Shown here: piece after piece, positions 1,054 to 34,766 of the stretch
Numbering within the stretch: position 1 is the first letter of the stretch
How the letters are laid out: the number at the start of each line of letters is the position of its first letter
From: Patescibacteria group bacterium
GTDB lineage: Bacteria > Patescibacteriota > Minisyncoccia > Portnoybacterales > GWB1-42-6
Direction of reading: 5' to 3'
DNA length: 38,775 bases
Assembly: GCA_018818145.1 (NCBI GenBank)
Contig: JAHIST010000087.1
Coordinates: forward strand, 1 to 38,775
Position numbers and translations under genes: made by a program
The notes under the pieces: model-generated
What the model saw: only the letters and a program-made list of their open reading frames with translations
Told to the model about the DNA's origin: nothing
The model's database searches: none

Positions 1054-1168
1054 ATTCAAAATCTAAAGCTCAAATGTCAAATCAAATCCAAAATCCGAAT
1101 GACTAAAAAAAGAATAAATTTTTGGATTTTAGGCTTTGAGCTTGATTTGACATTTGATTTTTTCTTTT

Positions 1169-9432: not shown

Positions 9433-10069
9433 AATCAGCTTTCTAATGGGGCAAGCAAGTCTATAAGCCGAATTCTGTCCTTCGGCTCACTTCGTTTCGC
9501 CTCAGGATAAATTCCTAAAAGGGTTTACCCTGAGCTTGCAAAGCAAGCGAAGGGATAATCATCTGTCTGGGTCCCGCATTGCTGCGGGACTCAAGCGATC
9601 TACTTTTCTTATGAGATTCAAATTTTCAATCTCATAGTTTGATCTTGCACCCGGTAAGGATTTTGCCGTTTCACTCCCAAAGTTATCCTTTGGGACTCGC
9701 CCTATCTCCGTTTTTGCGGAGCGGGCGTCCCGACTTTTTCAAGTTGCGGGGCGTCTCTGTTCGCACCTCTATCCCGCCCGCTTCGCCAAGCTTTAGCGAG
9801 GCGAGTATTTGCGGGACGACGGCCGTTAGCCGCTACCTTTTTACCCCTCACTTGGATCACTGGAGATGAAATAATATATTTATTTTATTCTTGTTCATCT
9901 GCAAGGAACCAAGTGAGGGGGAGTGTTCGGACTTTCCTCCCCCCACTTGCTATTAGTCTAGTTTATATTGTTTTAAGATCAACAATATTTTTTGGAAAAA
10001 TCTTATTACTTGACTGATAGCAAGTGGGGGGCGATTACCCGACTTACTTGCCCTATTAGAAAGCTGATT
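9433..10069 (-). ncRNA. rnpB: RNase P RNA, bacterial type A, unusually long
   Basis: The minus strand carries GGAGGAAAGTCCGAAC (P4 5' strand) and ACAGAATTCGGCTTATAG (P4 3' strand), with covariation relative to E. coli. It also has GCTAACGGCC, GCGAACAGAGACG, AGTGAAACGGC, CCGGGTGCAAGATCAAA, GCTTGAG and CAGACAGATGATTATCC. The terminal 29 nt pair with each other (9433-9461 with 10041-10069). Mature ends may be internal to this extended P1. Confidence 0.9.
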
Positions 10070-13532: not shown

Positions 13533-14675
13533 GTGATTGTAGGCGTTGATATCCGAGTTTTAGCTCGCGGCACGCGTACGGGGATAGAAGAATACACCCT
13601 TAATCTTCTGTCCCGTCTTTTGTCTTTGGGCAAAAACATAAAATTCAAGCTTTTTTATAATGCTTTTAATAAAAGTGAACTGGATTACGATTGGTTGAAT
13701 TTGCCCAACGTTGAGCTAAAAGAATTTTCATTTCCCAATCGCTTAATTTTCGACCCGTTGGCTAAATTTTTAAAGCTGCCAAAAATAGACAAGTTGTTGG
13801 GCGGTGCAGATGTATTTTTTGCCCCACATTTTTTATTGAGTCCGGTTTCTGATAGATGCCGAAAAATTATTACTTTTCACGATTTGTCATTTGAATATTT
13901 TCCGGAATTTTTCCCTTGGCGCAAGCGGCTGTGGCACGATTTTTTGAATCCGCGGGCCCGGGCGCGCCAGGCGGATAAAATTATTGCGGTATCTGGCTCA
14001 ACCAAGAATGACTTGACTGGTTGGTACAGCGTGCCGGGAAAAAACGTCAGAGTGATTTATTCTGGCGTAGGGGAAGAGTTTAAAAAATTGGAAATTGGAA
14101 ATTGGAAACTGGAAATTTCTGGCAAATATAATTTGCCAGGCAAGTTTATTTTATATTTCGGCACGATTGAGCCGCGCAAAAATATCAATGGCCTGGTCCG
14201 AGCTTATGAAATTTTAAGGCAGGACTACAAAATTAACGATTTTAAGTTAGTAATTGCGGGCAGTCGTGGGTGGCTGGACGAGCAAATATTCGCCAATGTC
14301 AAAAAATCAATCTACGGGGCGGATATAATTTTTACCGGTTTTGTCAGGCCACAGGATAAAATTTATTTGTATAATTTGAGTTCGCTTTTTGTTTATCCAA
14401 GTTTTTTTGAGGGTTTTGGTTTTCCGCCGCTGGAAGCGATGGCCTGCGGTGCGCCGGTTATTTGTTCCAACACCTCTTCATTTCCGGAAATAGCCGGCGA
14501 GGCGGCCTTAATGGTTGACCCTTATAATTTTGGCGAAATTGCCTGGGCGATGGCCGAAGTTTTAAAAGACTCGCGACTACAAGGGAATTTGGTCAATAAA
14601 GGGTTTGAACAAATTAAAAAATTTTCCTGGGACAAATGCGCGCGAGAAACACTGGATTTCATAACTAACAACTAA
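13533..14675 (+). CDS. Glycosyltransferase family 4 (GTG start)
   Basis: Motifs [19 protein letters not shown] and [32 protein letters not shown]. It contains an in-frame word repeat TTGGAAATTGGAAATTGGAAACTGGAAATTT at 14088-14119 ([12 protein letters not shown]). Confidence 0.85.
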
Positions 14676-14697: not shown

Positions 14698-15894
14698 ATG
14701 CGAATCGGTATTGACGCCCGCTTCTTTGGCCCGCGGGGCAAGGGGCTTGGGCGTTATACGCAAAAATTAATTGAATCGCTTCAAGAAATTGATAATCAGA
14801 ACGATTATGTGATTTTTTTGCGCCGCGAAAATTTTAATGAATTCCAGCCGCAAAACCCGCGCTTCAAAAAAGTTTTGGCTGACTACCGCTGGTACAGCGT
14901 GGCGGAACAGATTTTTTTACCATTTGTTATTTACAGGCAAAAAATAGATTTAATGCATTTTCCCCATTTTAATGTGCCGGTTTTATATTTTAAGCCGTTT
15001 GTTGTAACTATCCATGATTTGATTTTACGCCATTTTGCCACGCGCCGCGCCTCAACACTGGGATCGGTTAAGTATTGGTTTAAAAATCTGGCCTACCGGG
15101 CGGTTTTTCGGTTGGCTATCAGTCGGGCGAAAAAAATAATCACAGTTTCGCAATATGTCAGAAACGATATTATAAAATGTTTTAAAATAAAACCAGAAAA
15201 AATAGTGATGACTCACGAAGGAGTGCCGCAAAAAAATTCAAAATTCAAAAAGGCCACACCACCCCTTTTCCCTTCGGCAAAAGCCTACCAAAATTCAAAA
15301 GTAATTTTAGAAAAATACGGAATAAATAAACTATACCTGCTTTACGTGGGCAATGCTTATCCTCATAAAAATTTGGAGCGGCTATTGGGGGCTTTTAAAA
15401 TTTTAGTTGAAGATTTTAAAAAAGATATACAGCTTGTGCTGGCAGGCGAGGAGGATTATTTTTATCGCCGCTTGGAATCGTGTAATATTCTCATACTTCG
15501 GAGTATGGGAATATTACACGGAGAGCAATACGGTAGGGTAATTTTCACTGGTTTTGTGCCCGATGAAGAATTAGCTGGATTTTATAAAAACGCCAGCGCC
15601 TATGTTTTTCCCTCGCTTTGTGAAGGGTTTGGCTTACCATCGCTGGAAGCGATGAGTCAGGGCGTGCCGGTGGTTTCGTCCGGCGCCACCTGTCTGCCGG
15701 AAATTTTGGGCGAAGCGGCAGTTTATTTTGACCCTTTGAATCCGCGCGATATGGCGGAGAAAATAAATCAAGTTTTGGCAGATGAAAATCTGCGGCGCGG
15801 TTTGATAAGTAAAGGCTTTGAGCAAATAAAAAAATATTCTTGGCGGAAGATGGGGGAAGAAACATTAAATATATATTCAAATGTAAATATTTGA
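14698..15894 (+). CDS. Glycosyltransferase family 4
   Basis: Motifs MRIGIDARFF, YVGNAYPHKN and LCEGFGLPSLEAMSQGVPVVSSGATCLPEILG. It carries two atypical in-frame inserts (15234-15300 and 15480-15519). Confidence 0.85.
   Translation: MRIGIDARFFGPRGKGLGRYTQKLIESLQEIDNQNDYVIFLRRENFNEFQPQNPRFKKVLADYRWYSVAEQIFLPFVIYRQKIDLMHFPHFNVPVLYFKPFVVTIHDLILRHFATRRASTLGSVKYWFKNLAYRAVFRLAISRAKKIITVSQYVRNDIIKCFKIKPEKIVMTHEGVPQKNSKFKKATPPLFPSAKAYQNSKVILEKYGINKLYLLYVGNAYPHKNLERLLGAFKILVEDFKKDIQLVLAGEEDYFYRRLESCNILILRSMGILHGEQYGRVIFTGFVPDEELAGFYKNASAYVFPSLCEGFGLPSLEAMSQGVPVVSSGATCLPEILGEAAVYFDPLNPRDMAEKINQVLADENLRRGLISKGFEQIKKYSWRKMGEETLNIYSNVNI
15480..15519. repeat. Perfect 18-bp hairpin inside the GT4 coding sequence
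   Basis: GTGTAATATTCTCATACT tcgg AGTATGGGAATATTACAC forms 18 pairs including one G-U. It encodes SCNILILRSMGILH. Confidence 0.7.
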
Positions 15895-25929: not shown

Positions 25930-26874
25930 TTGATAATTGTCAGAGGAAAAATAAAATGGAAAATTGCTGCGATTTTAATTATTGTTATTGCGGCAATTTC
26001 GTTTATCTTGGTTTTTTTGCGGCTGAATGGCAATTTTAAAATTGGCAAGAAAAATTCAAATTTGCCGGTCAGGCGAGATTCAGAAAATTTTGTTTCTTCG
26101 CAAGATTACATTGTTTTTGATTATGGAAATGCCAAAGATTATGTTGAAAAATATTTTAGAGATAATCCGGCCGGCAAGGTTAATGATTTTCAAATCGGTA
26201 TAACTTCTCATCATTTGCCGTCTGCCGCTTATTTTATAGGAGATTTTTATCAGAACCTCGGAAAGGCAAATGACAAGATTTTTGTGGTGGTCGGGCCGGA
26301 CCATTTTGAAAGTTGCGGCGGTATGCTCTTAACTACACAAAAATCCTTTCTGACTCCTTTTGGAATTTTGGAAAGCGATTCGGAAATTGTTAAAAAGATT
26401 ATTGAGAGCGGAGCAATTTTTAATGACACATGTTTCAGTAGAGAGCATTCTATCGCTGTCCAAGCCCTTTTTATAAAATTTCTTTTTCCCGACGCAAAAA
26501 TTGTTGCTTTGCTTCTTTCGGCGAATATTGACACAAATACACTTCAAAATTTAACAAATAGTCTGAAAGCATTTGGGAAAAAAATAGTCCTGATTGGCAG
26601 CGTTGACTTTTCGCATTATCGCCCCTATGAGATTGCCGCCAGCCTGGATGCAGAAAGCGAAAAAATGATTTTAAATTATGATGTTTCTGCGATTGATCTT
26701 GGCCACGTTGATTCTCCTCCGACAATAAAATTATTAGTTTCTTTGGCAAGAGAATGGAAACTGAAGCCGCGGATTTTAGGCAGGGCAAACTCTTTTAATT
26801 TTACCGGAAAAACTGAAGACACGACGGGCTATATTAATGCGATTTTTTATGCTCCGGTTGGGAGCCGAGATTGA
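25930..26874 (+). CDS. Memo-like / AmmeMemoRadiSam system protein B family, membrane-anchored
   Basis: Motifs ITSHHLPSA, VVVGPDHF, SREHSIAVQALFIKFLFP and GSVDFSHY. There is an N-terminal TM segment (KIAAILIIVIAAISFILVFL). It has a TTG start; no in-frame ATG is nearby. Confidence 0.65.
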   Translation: MIIVRGKIKWKIAAILIIVIAAISFILVFLRLNGNFKIGKKNSNLPVRRDSENFVSSQDYIVFDYGNAKDYVEKYFRDNPAGKVNDFQIGITSHHLPSAAYFIGDFYQNLGKANDKIFVVVGPDHFESCGGMLLTTQKSFLTPFGILESDSEIVKKIIESGAIFNDTCFSREHSIAVQALFIKFLFPDAKIVALLLSANIDTNTLQNLTNSLKAFGKKIVLIGSVDFSHYRPYEIAASLDAESEKMILNYDVSAIDLGHVDSPPTIKLLVSLAREWKLKPRILGRANSFNFTGKTEDTTGYINAIFYAPVGSRD

Positions 26875-26929
26875 AAAAATCTTAAATTTATGGCAAAATT
26901 AAACCATCTTGAAAGGATGGTTTTTGTTT

Positions 26930-28942
26930 ATGGAACAGCAAAAAAACATCAGAAATTTTTGTATCGTGGCGCATATTGACCATGGCAAGTCCACTTTAGC
27001 GGATCGTTTTTTGGAATTGACGCAAACAGTAGAAAAACGAAAAATGCGTGAGCAATTTCTGGACCAGATGGATTTGGAGAGGGAGCGAGGAATAACAATC
27101 AAGCTGCAGCCGGTCAGGATGGAATACGTTTTGAAAAATCCAAATAACAAAATCCAAAGTTTAAATAAATTTCAAAATCCAAATGACCAAAATGTTCCGC
27201 CCGCTTCGCCGCAGCTTCAACGAGGCGAGCAGGGCGGGACTGGATTAGAAATTAGAAATTCGGATTTAGAAATTGCAGATTCAAAATTTATTTTGAATCT
27301 GATTGATACTCCGGGGCATGTAGACTTCTCATATGAAGTATCAAGATCGCTGGCCGCGGTGGAAGGCGCGATTTTGCTGGTGGACGCGACCAAAGGAGTG
27401 CAGGCCCAAACTTTGGCTAATTTATATTTAGCCCAGCAGCAAAATTTAGTTATTATTTCGGCAATCAATAAAATTGACTTGCCGGGCGCCAGAGTTTCGG
27501 AAGTGGAAGATGAAATCAGGAATATTTTGGGCGAAAAAGGCGCGGCTACGGAAATTTTTAAAATTTCCGCCAAAGAAGGCACAGATGTTGAAAAATTATT
27601 GCAGGCGGTAATAACTCAAGTTCCGTTGCCCGAAGGCGATGCGCAAAAACCCTTGCGCGCTTTGGTTTTTGATTCTGCTTACGATTCTTACAAGGGCGTA
27701 ATTGCCTATGTGCGGTTAATAGACGGAGAGATAAAGCGGGAAGACAAAATTATTTTTATGGCTTCAAAAGCCCGTGCTGAAGCGCTTGAGGTAGGAGTTT
27801 TTAAGCCCGATTTGCGTCCGGTTCAAAAATTGTCGGCCGGTGAGATCGGCTATATTGCCACCGGCCTGAAAGACGTGGCGCTTTGTCGCGTAGGCGACAC
27901 TATAACTATATCAAATATCAAAAATCCCCGGCCTCGCCCGGGCTTGGCCGAGGGCGGGCAAAGATCAAATATTTCAGAGGTTAAACCATTATCAGGATAC
28001 CGTGAACCCAGGCCTATGATTTTTGCCAGTTTTTACACGGCTTCCGGGTCGGAGCGGGAAAATCAAGACTTTAATTTATTGCGCGACGCGCTGTCAAAAT
28101 TAAAATTAAGCGACGCTTCGCTGGTTTTTGAACCGGAAGCGTCGGAAGCCTTGGGCCGCGGCTTTAAATGCGGATTTTTGGGCATGCTGCATTTGGAAAT
28201 TGTCAGCGAAAGATTGCGGCGCGAATACGGTTTAAAATTGATTATTACCACGCCAAGCGTGGTTTATCAGCTCAAGGAAAAAAACAATCCCGAACAAAAA
28301 TTAATTTACTCGCCCCAGCATTTGCCCGACGCCAGTTGCACAGAAGAGATTAAGGAGCCCTGGATTAAGTTGGAAATTATCAGTCCCAACGAATATCTGG
28401 GAACAGTGATGAAGTTGCTACAGGGATTGGGTGGAATTTACGCCAACACCCAATATCTGGGCGCGCAGAGAGTCATAATCAGCTATGAAGCGCCGCTGCG
28501 AGAAATTATTGTTGATTTTTACGATAAATTAAAAGGCGCTACTTCCGGTTACGCCTCTATGAGCTATGAATTAATTGAATGGCGGGCGGGAGATTTGGTT
28601 TGTCTGGACATCCTTGTGGCCGGTGAAAAAGTAGAGGCATTTTCGCGGATTGTTCCGCGCGCCAAAGCATTGTCGGAAGGCCGGGCGATCGTGGAAAGAT
28701 TAAAAGATGTTTTGCCGGCCCAGCTTTTCACGGTCGCTTTGCAGGCGGCTGTAGGCGGCAAAATCCTGGCGCGCGAAACGATTAGGGCGCGCCGCAAAGA
28801 CGTGACCGGCTATTTATACGGCGGCGATGTAACGCGAAAGCGTAAATTATTAGAAAAGCAGAAAAAAGGCAAAAAGAAAATGCTGTCGCGCGGCCGCGTC
28901 AACATCCCGCAGGATGTGTTTTTGAAGGTATTAAAGAAGTAA
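26930..28942 (+). CDS. lepA: Translation elongation factor 4 (LepA)
   Basis: Motifs IRNFCIVAHIDHGKSTLADR, DTPGHVDF, NKIDL and the LepA_C tail GGDVTRKRKLLEKQKKGKKKM. ATG 26930 (MEQQKNIRNF) is preferred over TTG 26909. Confidence 0.95.
   Translation: MEQQKNIRNFCIVAHIDHGKSTLADRFLELTQTVEKRKMREQFLDQMDLERERGITIKLQPVRMEYVLKNPNNKIQSLNKFQNPNDQNVPPASPQLQRGEQGGTGLEIRNSDLEIADSKFILNLIDTPGHVDFSYEVSRSLAAVEGAILLVDATKGVQAQTLANLYLAQQQNLVIISAINKIDLPGARVSEVEDEIRNILGEKGAATEIFKISAKEGTDVEKLLQAVITQVPLPEGDAQKPLRALVFDSAYDSYKGVIAYVRLIDGEIKREDKIIFMASKARAEALEVGVFKPDLRPVQKLSAGEIGYIATGLKDVALCRVGDTITISNIKNPRPRPGLAEGGQRSNISEVKPLSGYREPRPMIFASFYTASGSERENQDFNLLRDALSKLKLSDASLVFEPEASEALGRGFKCGFLGMLHLEIVSERLRREYGLKLIITTPSVVYQLKEKNNPEQKLIYSPQHLPDASCTEEIKEPWIKLEIISPNEYLGTVMKLLQGLGGIYANTQYLGAQRVIISYEAPLREIIVDFYDKLKGATSGYASMSYELIEWRAGDLVCLDILVAGEKVEAFSRIVPRAKALSEGRAIVERLKDVLPAQLFTVALQAAVGGKILARETIRARRKDVTGYLYGGDVTRKRKLLEKQKKGKKKMLSRGRVNIPQDVFLKVLKK
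27137..27280. repeat. Composite dispersed-repeat insertion, in frame, between switch I and the DTPGH motif of lepA
   Basis: It has three parts. AAATCCAAATGACCAAAA is about 18/20 identical to 1089-1108. The GC hairpin CCGCCCGCTTCGCC...CGAGGCGAG...GCGGGAC (27197-27240) is about 85% identical to 9773-9817. GGATTAGAAATTAGAAATTCGGATTTAGAAATT is nearly identical to 33675-33707. Confidence 0.75.
27910..27972. repeat. Second in-frame lepA insertion (54-nt period) flanked by a 9-bp direct repeat ATCAAATAT
   Basis: ATCAAATAT occurs at 27910-27918 and 27964-27972. The GC-rich core is CCCCGGCCTCGCCCGGGCTTGGCCGAGGGCGGGC. Removing the 18 aa restores colinearity with E. coli LepA ([23 protein letters not shown], from memory). 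Confidence 0.65.
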
Positions 28943-29551: not shown

Positions 29552-29634
29552 TTTCCCCTCTTTTGTAAAGAGGGGTTAGGGGAGATTTAGATTTTTATAA
29601 AATCCACCCCAACCCTCCTTTAAAAAGGAGGGAG
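29552..29634. repeat. Double-hairpin repeat, copy A (immediately after a stop codon, upstream of tRNA-Gly)
   Basis: TTTCCCCTCTTTTGTAAAGAGGGGTTAGGGGAGATTT...CCCTCCTTTAAAAAGGAGGGAG aligns along its length with 31101-31180. Confidence 0.7.
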
Positions 29635-31100: not shown

Positions 31101-31180
31101 TTTCCCCTCCTTTAGGAGGGGCGAGGGGAGATTTTAAAACTATTAAAATCCTCCCTATCCCTCCTTTAAAAAGGAGGGAG
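31101..31180. repeat. Double-hairpin repeat, copy B (immediately after the aspS stop, upstream of tRNA-Thr)
   Basis: TTTCCCCTCCTTTAGGAGGGGCGAGGGGAGATTTT...CCCTCCTTTAAAAAGGAGGGAG, the same family as 29552-29634. Confidence 0.7.
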
Positions 31181-32833: not shown

Positions 32834-33511
32834 ATGATAATTTTTCAAAACATTTCCAAAATTTACGACGGCTGCACAGCGCTGGATAGGGTGAATTTTG
32901 CGATTAAGCCGAAAGAATTTATTTCTTTGGCCGGGCCTTCGGGCGCGGGCAAGTCAACTGTTTTTAAATTGCTTATCGGCGAGGAACAGCCCACCAAAGG
33001 CAAGATTTTTTTGGATAAACAAAATATTCATTTGATAAATAACAGCAATCTGCCGCAGCTGCGCCGCAAAATAGGCATGGTTTTTCAGGATTTTCGTTTA
33101 CTGTCGGACCGCACGGCTTATGAAAATGTCGCTTTTGCCATGGAAGTGGCCGGCGCTGCGGACAGGGAAATAGAACAGGATGTGCCGCAATTGCTGGAGC
33201 TCGTCGGTTTACTGGACAAGCTTAATCAGTTTCCCCATCAGCTGTCAGGCGGAGAAAAACAGCGCGTTGCCATCGCCCGCGCTTTGATTCATCGTCCGTC
33301 GGTTATTTTGGCGGACGAGCCGACAGGAAACCTGGATTTGCTTAACACTTGGGATATTATTCGGCTGTTGATGAAAATTAATGAACTGGGCACGACAGTA
33401 ATTTTAGCCACTCACGACCGGGAAGTTATCAATAATCTTGGCCGGCGGGTGATAACATTGGATAAAGGAAGAATTATCAGGGATGAGGAGGACGGAAGAT
33501 ACATACTTTAA
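32834..33511 (+). CDS. ftsE: Cell-division ABC transporter ATP-binding protein FtsE
   Basis: Walker A GPSGAGKST, signature LSGGEKQRVAIARAL, Walker B ILADEPTGNLD. It lies directly upstream of ftsX. ATG 32834 (MIIFQNISKIY) is preferred over TTG 32801. Confidence 0.85.
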   Translation: MIIFQNISKIYDGCTALDRVNFAIKPKEFISLAGPSGAGKSTVFKLLIGEEQPTKGKIFLDKQNIHLINNSNLPQLRRKIGMVFQDFRLLSDRTAYENVAFAMEVAGAADREIEQDVPQLLELVGLLDKLNQFPHQLSGGEKQRVAIARALIHRPSVILADEPTGNLDLLNTWDIIRLLMKINELGTTVILATHDREVINNLGRRVITLDKGRIIRDEEDGRYIL

Positions 33512-33530
33512 ATTTTCAATTTCCAATTTT

Positions 33531-33583
33531 TCCCGATTTATCATTGATAAATCGAGGATCCACGATGGCTTCGCCATCGGGAC
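33531..33583. repeat. Palindromic element TCCCGATTT...AAATCGAGGATCCACGAT...ATCGGGAC, copy 2
   Basis: Same ends and core as 31193-31264. Confidence 0.6.
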
Positions 33584-33598
33584 AATTTCCAATAATTG

Positions 33599-33707
33599 CC
33601 GCCTGCTCGCCTCGCTGCCGCCTTTTGCGAGCCTCGCCTCTGGCGGGAAGCTACGGCGAAGCGGGCGGCGGCATGGTTTAGAAATTAGAAATTAGGATTT
33701 AGAAATT
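33599..33707. repeat. Intergenic composite repeat: GC hairpin family plus the TTAGAAATTAGAAATT word run
   Basis: CCGCCTGCTCGCCTCG...GGCGAAGCGGGCGG is the reverse-complement relative of 27197-27240 and 9773-9817. It is followed by GGTTTAGAAATTAGAAATTAGGATTTAGAAATT. Confidence 0.7.
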
Positions 33708-33714
33708 ATATTTT

Positions 33715-34629: not shown

Positions 34630-34687
34630 ATTTTAGTTTGTAAGTTTTTAAGTTTATCGGTTTATAATTTTTCTATTGTCATTCCCA

Positions 34688-34731
34688 CCCCGTATCTGTC
34701 ATTCCCGCGAAAGCGGGAATCCAGTACGGGG
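34688..34731. repeat. Nested hairpin repeat (CCCCGTATCTG ... ATTCCCGC gaaa GCGGGAAT ... CAGTACGGGG)
   Basis: The inner 8-bp stem has a GAAA loop. The outer ~10-bp stem has one bulge. GTCATTCCC and GCGGGAATCC are each repeated nearby. Confidence 0.6.
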
Positions 34732-34766
34732 TAAACTCCAGCGGGAATCCATTTAAGAAAAGATCT

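Follow-up and report, generated by a model that had tools for sequence, protein, structure and literature searches.

An in-frame composite of palindromic repeats in LepA of a Patescibacteria bacterium, a probable analogue of the Rickettsia palindromic elements

How does an essential translation GTPase come to carry, beside its switch regions, a segment of 53 codons whose DNA also occurs in non-coding places? The question is raised by lepA, the gene for LepA (EF4), in a Patescibacteria group bacterium of the Portnoybacterales (assembly GCA_018818145.1, contig JAHIST010000087.1). We analyzed positions 1 to 38,775 of this contig, and "the window" below means this whole 38,775-nt stretch. A first-pass annotation had noticed an in-frame insertion in the LepA G domain and had likened it to the Rickettsia palindromic elements (RPEs). 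We find that the insert is built in at least two layers and that both of its modules belong to dispersed families, with copies between genes, in a gene for RNase P RNA and in other organisms of the same aquifers. We suggest, with a probability of roughly 0.7, that it is RPE-like selfish or neutral DNA: a non-autonomous composite of hairpin-forming repeats, fixed in frame at a highly permissive LepA loop.

The variable segment of LepA

The gene and the parts of the segment are as follows.

26930-28942, forward strand: lepA (EF4), 670 aa from the ATG at 26930, with the G1-G4 motifs AHIDHGKST, RGITIK, DTPGH and NKID intact.
27128-27286, forward strand: the whole variable segment (the insert), 159 nt or 53 codons, VLKNPNN...LEIADSK, between QPVRMEY and FILNLIDTPGH.
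27128-27193, forward strand: left AT-rich arm with AAATCC / AAATTTC-type words, an imperfect complement of the right arm.
27194-27240, forward strand: GC-rich imperfect hairpin with the outer stem GTTCCGC...GCGGGAC.
27241-27275, forward strand: right AT-rich arm, which holds the 30-mer TTAGAAATTAGAAATTCGGATTTAGAAATT at 27245-27274, a high-copy dispersed repeat.
27276-27301, forward strand: junction hairpin; the 3' end of the insert forms its left arm, CAGATTCAAAAT, and the conserved ILNL codons of beta3 form its right arm, ATTTTGAATCTG.

The product is a LepA. It combines a G domain bearing the G1-G4 motifs with the LepA-specific C-terminal domain (precomputed Pfam matches PF00009, PF03144, PF00679 and PF06421, LepA_C), and it matches the solved LepA 2ywe with an E value of 8e-72. 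The reading frame is free of stops from 26909/26930 to 28942. The insert occupies the beta2-beta3 hairpin tip, which lies between switch I and DTPGH. In the closest relative found (P0002/L081), whose lepA is 85% identical in DNA and 89% identical in protein over aligned columns, this site holds the 6-codon turn NFAGDD, a canonical turn that is also seen in many more distant relatives. The window thus has 53 codons where its relative has 6, a net gain of 47 residues, and the distance from GITIK to DTPGH is 67 residues as against 20 in P0002/L081 and 16-20 in other LepAs of the Candidate Phyla Radiation (CPR). The solved LepAs 2ywe, 4w2e and 3cb4 also have a short turn, with no equivalent of window residues ~71-119.

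The insert DNA is real. Logan contigs from three independent groundwater DNA runs span all of it with zero differences, and an assembly artefact is therefore excluded. Together with the empty site in L081, this bears out the in-frame insertion proposed earlier; its extent, given then as 27137-27280 and ~46 aa, proves slightly wider, at 27128-27286 and a net 47 aa.

The insert is a set of nested palindromes, with AT-rich arms, a GC hairpin between the arms and a junction hairpin at the 3' end. The 181-nt insert region folds at -50 kcal/mol, compared with -32.5 for shuffled sequences (z = -4.6; -4.59 unrounded), and with its listed arms and folds it has the form of a palindromic, long-hairpin element of the RPE kind. 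The arms consist of heptamer-like words of the AAATCC / TTAGAAA type, and the pairings between left and right arm (I1, I3 and I4) cover 17-24 nt at 71-88% complementarity. The stretch 27167-27193 of the left arm matches the lepA of L082 with 2 mismatches. Both L084 and L082 have the same AT arms around a 17-nt hairpin, GTCCCGC-AGA-GCGGGAC (L084 reads GTCCCGCAGAGCGGGAC at this position), and the inner 33 nt of the window's GC hairpin (27201-27233) stand in place of their AGA, a nested insertion of 10 codons. Comparison of these sequences indicates that the insert is layered, the GC hairpin being nested in an older, short hairpin. Neither this nesting nor the junction hairpin with the ILNL codons was part of the earlier description.

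At the protein level, an AlphaFold2 model built from a 36-sequence alignment has strands at residues 62-67 and 119-125, and residues 68-118 between them are coil with a predicted local distance difference test score (pLDDT) below 50. This low-confidence coil, located at a hairpin tip that is a short turn in the solved LepAs, speaks for a loop that is exposed and dispensable, as does the huge variation in length that the site tolerates, so far as a model can indicate. The tryptic peptides of the insert are FQNPNDQNVPPASPQLQR, GEQGGTGLEIR and NSDLEIADSK. A word-index search for the insert peptide in other protein families gave no candidate. A phmmer search against 1.84 billion representatives gave nothing at E <= 0.001; this query is short and of low complexity, and the result is hence uninformative.

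Dispersed modules and a recurrently filled site

Copies of the modules, or sequences related to them, lie at several other places in the window.

33510-33714, forward strand: composite in the ftsE-ftsX spacer, with an AT-rich left arm, small hairpins, a GC hairpin at 33599-33670 and a right arm at 33678-33707.
9448-10050, reverse strand: class-A RNase P RNA gene (RNaseP_bact_a) of ~600 nt, found with 85 bits and E 3.6e-26 against an Rfam gathering score of 100.
9773-9817, forward strand: GC hairpin, third copy, complete with its outer stem TCCCGC...GCGGGA; it lies within the gene for RNase P RNA.
1065-1162, forward strand: intergenic AT-rich long hairpin with AAATCC / GGATTT words, the AAATCCAAA family of the earlier annotation, with modest similarity to the left arm in lepA.

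The 30-mer of the right arm recurs at 33678-33707 with 1 mismatch, where shuffled sequences give 0 expected, and the GC arm CCGCCCGCTTCGCCG occurs at 27197, at 9774 and, on the reverse strand, at 33654 (0.02 expected). Copies of a dispersed family in both coding and non-coding DNA are thus found, at 33599-33707, at 9773-9817 and on other contigs of the runs X1-X3. The genes that flank the 33510-33714 composite were identified as FtsE and FtsX. Their spacer is 203 nt long in the window and wholly occupied by the composite, compared with about 4-35 nt in relatives. The composite folds at -89 kcal/mol, with AT arms that pair around GC hairpins, a design as in the lepA insert. The GC hairpin and the right arm had been described as standing in the same order at the two sites; both are present, though in the spacer the hairpin has the opposite orientation to its lepA counterpart and is longer by about 30 nt. 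In the closest relative in the genome collection (L001:15257-15530), the ftsE-ftsX spacer is also enlarged, to ~260 nt, and is filled by other nested GC hairpins. Because this spacer has expanded with different hairpins, it is likewise a hot spot for repeats.

The RNase P RNA gene scores below the Rfam gathering threshold because insertions of 33-92 nt interrupt or take the place of several of its helices; one of these insertions contains the GC hairpin family of lepA. The 29-nt inverted repeat 9433-9461 / 10041-10069 is the P1 stem of this RNA. A further candidate copy of the GC hairpin, GTCCCGC...GCGGGAC at 9571-9590, was rejected, as it is a native helix of the RNase P RNA. The proposal of three intergenic-type repeat families therefore stands for the dispersed GC hairpin and 30-mer copies, and fails for 9773-9817, which is not intergenic. 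The proposed link of the left arm to 1085-1110 through the AAATCCAAA family is real but weak: the identity to 1071-1111 is about 77-82% in low-complexity sequence, and of the five occurrences of AAAATCCAAA (0.9 expected) three lie within the lepA insert itself.

Beyond the window, the 30-mer has a depth of 170-660 in the runs X1-X3 compared with 7-10 for the host genome, i.e., 20-60 times as much, and in metagenome assemblies of these runs its region falls apart into unitigs of k-mer size. The excess depth and the k-mer-sized unitigs make it a high-copy repeat in the metagenomes. The GC core is found on at least 4 other contigs of run X1 with differing flanks, often nested in a further, well-known hairpin, TGTCATTC...GCGGGAATCC. 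At 34681-34750, directly upstream of tRNA-Gln, the window has nested GC hairpins that include the widespread element GTCATTCCCGCGAAAGCGGGAATCC, and it is in hairpins of this kind that the lepA GC core sits on other metagenome contigs. A search of viral contigs for the 30-mer and the GC core gave zero exact matches. Module copies also occur in other lepA genes (L086, L112, L084 and L168). That of L168 has a GC core identical at 33/35 nt and in the same frame within a short loop that lacks the AT arms; that of L086 has the arms and lacks the core, and a metagenome variant has the AT arms around a different 19-nt centre with the core absent (joint 27192->27245). Since the core is found alone and the arms are found alone, the two modules move or arise independently.

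For the orthologue comparison we used 116 close LepAs and 166 CPR loci. The latter came from LepA-seeded genome and metagenome scans and are mostly distant CPR relatives, and their counts are among the matches listed. The loop at the insert site is expanded in 60 of the 116 closest LepAs and in 32/165 loci of the broader set, 28 of which have at least 30 residues there. Across CPR LepAs the site holds 4 to about 150 residues, and it is owing to such inserts that the 116 close relatives have LepAs of 587 to 758 aa. The inserts stem from many unrelated repeat families; AT arms homologous to those of the window occur in a subset (P0003, P0004, P0007, P0083, P0103, P0112 and others). The beta2-beta3 loop of LepA is a recurrent insertion hot spot across the lineage.

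As had been stated for the window, the frame stays open. All 166 complete loci listed are in frame and free of stops from GITIK to DTPGH, even though two of the three frames of the arms contain stops, which argues that the inserts are translated and that selection filters for the sole open frame. The same filter accounts for the recurrence of certain peptides, namely LEIRNSDLEI where the repeat is in forward orientation and FLISN / NPKSEI where it is reversed.

Several observations concern the surroundings of the hot spot. P0088 and L155:1173-1682 have an in-frame insert of ~150 residues at the same beta2-beta3 loop, and that of P0088 holds a PD-(D/E)XK nuclease-like domain (precomputed PF13366) that may be a mobile nuclease and may help to account for the hot spot. 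Downstream of lepA in L086 (4086-4530) there is a small open reading frame (ORF) which, by eye and without a family search, resembles a GIY-YIG-type nuclease (MKEKLYCIYILSNK...). It is bracketed by GC hairpins of the '...CATTGCGAGG / CCTCGCAATGAC' family, and this family is also found in frame in the LepA loops of P0091, P0115 and L096. The lepA of P0003, which bears an insert, has a reverse-transcriptase gene (RVT_1, L082:3-638) directly upstream in divergent orientation.

In a tree made from columns outside the hot spots, sister LepAs alternate between a filled and an empty site (P0001 vs P0002; P0003 vs P0008/P0009), and the empty sites retain the canonical NxNFxGQDY loop that is common to distant relatives. 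The window insert is thus an in-frame insertion with an intact host ORF and an empty site in close relatives. The LepAs of the window and of L086 are only about 60% (63%) identical in protein, while the 30-nt right arm is identical at 30/30 positions. Where amino acids are identical, the same codon is used at 40% of positions outside the insert; inside it, 26/27 codons are identical where 13.8 would be expected (P < 1e-6 in simulations). Third codon positions are 100% identical across the right arm (aa 101-120) and 45-55% identical in the flanks next to it. Because sister sites alternate and nucleotide identity is confined to the insert, vertical inheritance does not explain it.

No recombination tract was found: flank identity is not raised in comparison with L086, L082 or L084, and the flanks are ordinary in comparison with the empty-site sister L081. 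The ILNL codons of filled and empty sisters are not decisive on recombination. From these sequence comparisons, the filled alleles would reflect either repeated insertion or spread by very short patches, or else DNA that is itself constrained.

Origin of the insert and the junction hairpin

At the 3' end of the insert, 27276-27287 (CAGATTCAAAAT) is the exact reverse complement of 27290-27301 (I6, 12 nt, 100%), and half of this palindrome is thus made of host codons. Among the matches listed, a perfect junction stem of 8-14 bp is found in 12/28 insert-bearing loci and in 0/129 insert-free loci, which reach 6 bp at most. Across 11 distinct sequences, 5 of the 11 pairs change on both sides and 96.7% of positions are paired, a value that 0/500 shuffles reach; the pairing drops to 20-50% in slid registers. 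Changes in the left arm alter insert residues (K/R, D/N/S), whereas those in the right arm are synonymous, and L094 has the identical palindrome read in another frame. Since the right-arm changes are synonymous and L094 uses another frame, the constraint acts on nucleic acid. No convincing counterpart with the QPVRMEY codons at the 5' junction was seen on direct reading of the sequence.

Quasi-palindrome template-switch mutagenesis, known from genetic work on E. coli and phage T4, is a process of mutation and not an element; it would explain the joint change of both 11-bp arms without selection. The constraint could thus reflect selection on RNA or DNA structure, templated correction of a quasi-palindrome, or an independent fold-back origin in each lineage.

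The layers of the insert are at least two: an AT-rich inverted-repeat element, which other Portnoybacteria LepAs have at the same site, and the 33-nt GC hairpin core, nested into the small central hairpin of this AT element. In the course of events that we favor, the insert DNA would have arrived after the split from the closest relative, whether by insertion of an element or by short-patch transfer of a filled allele. Hairpin or template-switch chemistry in replication or repair may have produced the palindromic junction with the ILNL codons. Selection would be only a filter, letting through lengths divisible by three with a single open frame. The insert would then be transcribed and translated as a disordered, solvent-exposed loop, one that is probably neither helpful nor seriously harmful to EF4.

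Several points weigh against this account. The only metatranscriptome found (X8) has exact contigs at lepA 26752-27061 and 28724-28901 and none across the insert. The count of copies within the genome is restricted to 38.8 kb of it. Short-patch recombination of filled alleles is indistinguishable from true re-insertion. As to the mode of movement, neither defined ends of an element nor a consistent target-site duplication was found: the window has TTTTGAA at both 27129 and 27291, L082, L084, L086, L087 and L170 show no direct repeat to match it, and this 7-nt repeat was consequently rejected as a consistent duplication. No transposase was seen among the 10 of about 28 window ORFs scanned. In addition, the strict conservation of the 30-mer and the covariation of the junction could mean that the nucleic acid has a selected function and is not neutral.

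A more far-reaching explanation, possible though in our judgement unlikely, is a site-directed process at the beta2-beta3 loop of lepA in CPR, in which recurrent breaks or stalled forks would be followed by fold-back repair and the capture of palindromic repeats. The source of the breaks might be a nuclease, such as the PD-(D/E)XK domain that lies in frame at the same site (P0088/L155). Such a process would explain the inverted ILNL copy that covaries with host codon usage, the hairpins nested in hairpins, and the repeats shared by protein loops, RNase P RNA and spacers. If true, it would be a general generator of new protein and RNA loops in reduced genomes.

The last point against the repeat-composite account is the core of another explanation, in which selection maintains the 30-nt right arm and the junction hairpin as nucleic acid and the peptide is a by-product. 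The element could be an mRNA structure that tunes the translation or stability of lepA, or a DNA signal for protein binding, uptake or termination that is re-used in many places. The paired and covarying junction hairpin (96.7% paired, 5 covarying pairs), with the L094 palindrome in a different frame, fits such an element, as does a 30-mer that is identical across LepAs about 60% identical and is high-copy in the community; similar AT hairpins after a tRNA gene and between genes are terminator-like. We nevertheless consider this explanation quite improbable. Half of the insert-bearing loci lack the junction hairpin, and the element as a whole is missing from the closest relative and from most CPR LepAs, so that it is dispensable for lepA. 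Moreover, the covariation of a quasi-palindrome can come about without selection, by template-switch correction or independent fold-back origin, and no U-tract or other recognizable signal is present.

The third explanation concerns the protein, and here the insert would be an ancestral, lineage-specific extension of the EF4 G domain, kept by protein-level selection (e.g., for contacts with the unusual CPR ribosome) and repeatedly lost. The first-pass annotation had reasoned that the same insertion in close relatives that lack these repeat families would make it an ancestral loop. Homologous AT-rich arms are indeed present in relatives, many CPR LepAs have related peptides at the site (LEIRNSDLEI, NPKSEIRNPKQ), and the frame is kept in every locus. 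In the closest relative, however, the loop is canonical and empty, and conservation of the arms exceeds that of the synonymous sites of the gene, so that the insert is not a vertically inherited ancestral loop. Synonymous sites in the insert are likewise conserved above those in the rest of the gene, non-coding places contain the same DNA, the loops of sister taxa are short and canonical, the inserts of the site come from many unrelated repeat families, and the predicted structure is disordered. We regard an ancestral extension as very unlikely.

Removal or skipping of the insert, as with an intron or a translational bypass of the T4 gene 60 / mitochondrial byps type that would leave a normal short loop in the protein, is the least credible of all: stable hairpins do lie exactly at the insert and at its 3' junction, insertions in CPR rRNA genes are known (PMC11270868) and the window's RNase P RNA gene is interrupted too, but all 166 listed loci, with 32 expanded loops among them, are in frame and stop-free, which is unexpected of untranslated DNA, and Rfam found no intron family (only tRNAs at gathering score), no joined form occurs in RNA or DNA contigs of the organism, and no take-off/landing codon pair with a stop is present. 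An intron, intein or bypass element was rejected as a class for the insert, since it has no ribozyme or intein signature and does not break the frame.

Related systems and similar insertions elsewhere

The repeat composite in lepA resembles several known systems. As summarized in PMC10969869 and PMC3184786, RPEs (Ogata et al. 2000, 2002) are palindromic repeats of ~100-150 bp, intergenic and coding, which lie in frame in unrelated housekeeping genes with the ORF kept and are thought to be tolerated on protein surfaces. In-frame repeat fusions are described in Rickettsia and a few other bacteria (PMC10969869, PMC3184786). Like RPEs, the lepA insert is palindromic, dispersed in coding and non-coding DNA, in frame, and subject to filled and empty sites among relatives. 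The analogy drawn in the first-pass annotation is thus upheld by filled and empty sister sites, dispersed copies, nucleotide-level identity of the insert and the open frame in 166/166 loci. There are also differences. The lepA insert comes from another phylum, CPR/Patescibacteria, and has a different sequence; it is modular and nested, with AT arms plus an independently occurring GC core; one LepA loop is hit repeatedly by many repeat families; and the insert forms a junction palindrome with host codons, while one module copy lies inside a ribozyme gene. We therefore consider it an analogue, and not a member, of the Rickettsia families RPE-1 to RPE-10, from which it is set apart by host phylum, homology not being expected.

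[quoted passage not shown] The lepA insert is likewise short and non-autonomous, forms a long stem-loop and can extend or interrupt ORFs in frame. It has imperfect terminal inverted repeats, namely AT arms of 17-24 nt at 71-88% complementarity, and the same arms bound the ftsE-ftsX composite. It differs from MITEs in that these arms are low-complexity heptamer arrays and not defined terminal repeats, in that it has no consistent target-site duplication, and in that no cognate insertion sequence or transposase was identified in 10 of the ~28 window ORFs.

The GC core by itself, a GC-rich imperfect palindrome of 33-47 nt in many copies and often nested with other hairpins, is like the repetitive extragenic palindromes and bacterial interspersed mosaic elements (REP/BIME; PMC3733652), which are GC-rich imperfect palindromes of 20-40 nt in many copies. 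The GTAG/CGTC head and the extragenic location of REPs are not found: the three window copies have no common head and two of the three are inside genes. In further contrast to REP/BIME, no gene for a REP-associated tyrosine transposase (RAYT) was seen in the 38.8-kb window (10 of about 28 ORFs scanned).

The insertions in CPR rRNA genes (PMC11270868) are found in the same organism group and, as in lepA, place extra sequence at permissive places in essential genes of the translation machinery; the window's RNase P RNA gene is interrupted similarly. Most of those insertions, however, are taken out of the RNA, being introns or elements with ORFs, whereas in lepA the frame is preserved and translation of the insert is most likely. 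Our literature searches on in-frame or palindromic insertions in CPR found no description, which is not proof of absence.

In-frame palindromic selfish DNA, held to be almost peculiar to Rickettsia, would now be found in an unrelated, uncultured radiation with tiny genomes, and in an essential translation GTPase beside its switch regions, where about half of the closest orthologues carry a repeat-derived insert. The loop offers a natural experiment in the tolerance of a G domain for foreign sequence in one of its loops. It is relevant to the origin of new protein segments from non-coding repeats and connects the insertions in CPR rRNA and RNase P RNA genes with those in protein genes. The main points of interest are the hot spot, the nesting, the nucleotide identity across lineages and the unexplained covarying junction hairpin, which is a concrete clue to the insertion mechanism. 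In practice, the length variation of LepA is a warning for annotation, phylogenomics and marker-gene alignments of CPR genomes.

Similar insertions are present at further sites in the window.

27908-27985, forward strand: second in-frame palindromic insert of lepA, ISNIKNPRPRPGLAEGGQRSNISEVK, with AT-rich flanks around a GC hairpin, after CRVGDTIT.
15478-15521: AT-rich hairpin, near-perfect over 20 bp with one G:T pair, in frame in the glycosyltransferase (GT4) gene 14698-15894.
29570-29634 and 31116-31180: pair of 65-nt repeats, 82% identical, with the hairpin CCCTCCTTTAAAAAGGAGGG, directly upstream of tRNA-Gly and tRNA-Thr.

The second lepA insert is common to L081 and missing from most other LepAs. 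The GT4 hairpin is a 10-residue insertion (SCNILILRSMGILHG region) in comparison with the adjacent paralogue 13533-14675. In the linker of that other GT4 gene, 14084-14117 consists of 3-4 tandem AAATTGG heptamers in frame, which resemble the LEIENWKL / LEIGNWDLEI arms of the LepA inserts of relatives. The tRNA-proximal, intergenic repeat D6 (29597-29634) is found in frame at hot spot 2 of the L087 LepA (KIPPNPPFTKGGE...), with 33/38 nt identical. Finally, an arm-like sequence, AATTTCTAATTTCTAATTCCGAATTTCTAA, lies in frame (KFLISNSEF) in a CPR isoleucyl-tRNA synthetase (L093:14823-14852), right before the WTTTPWTLP motif.

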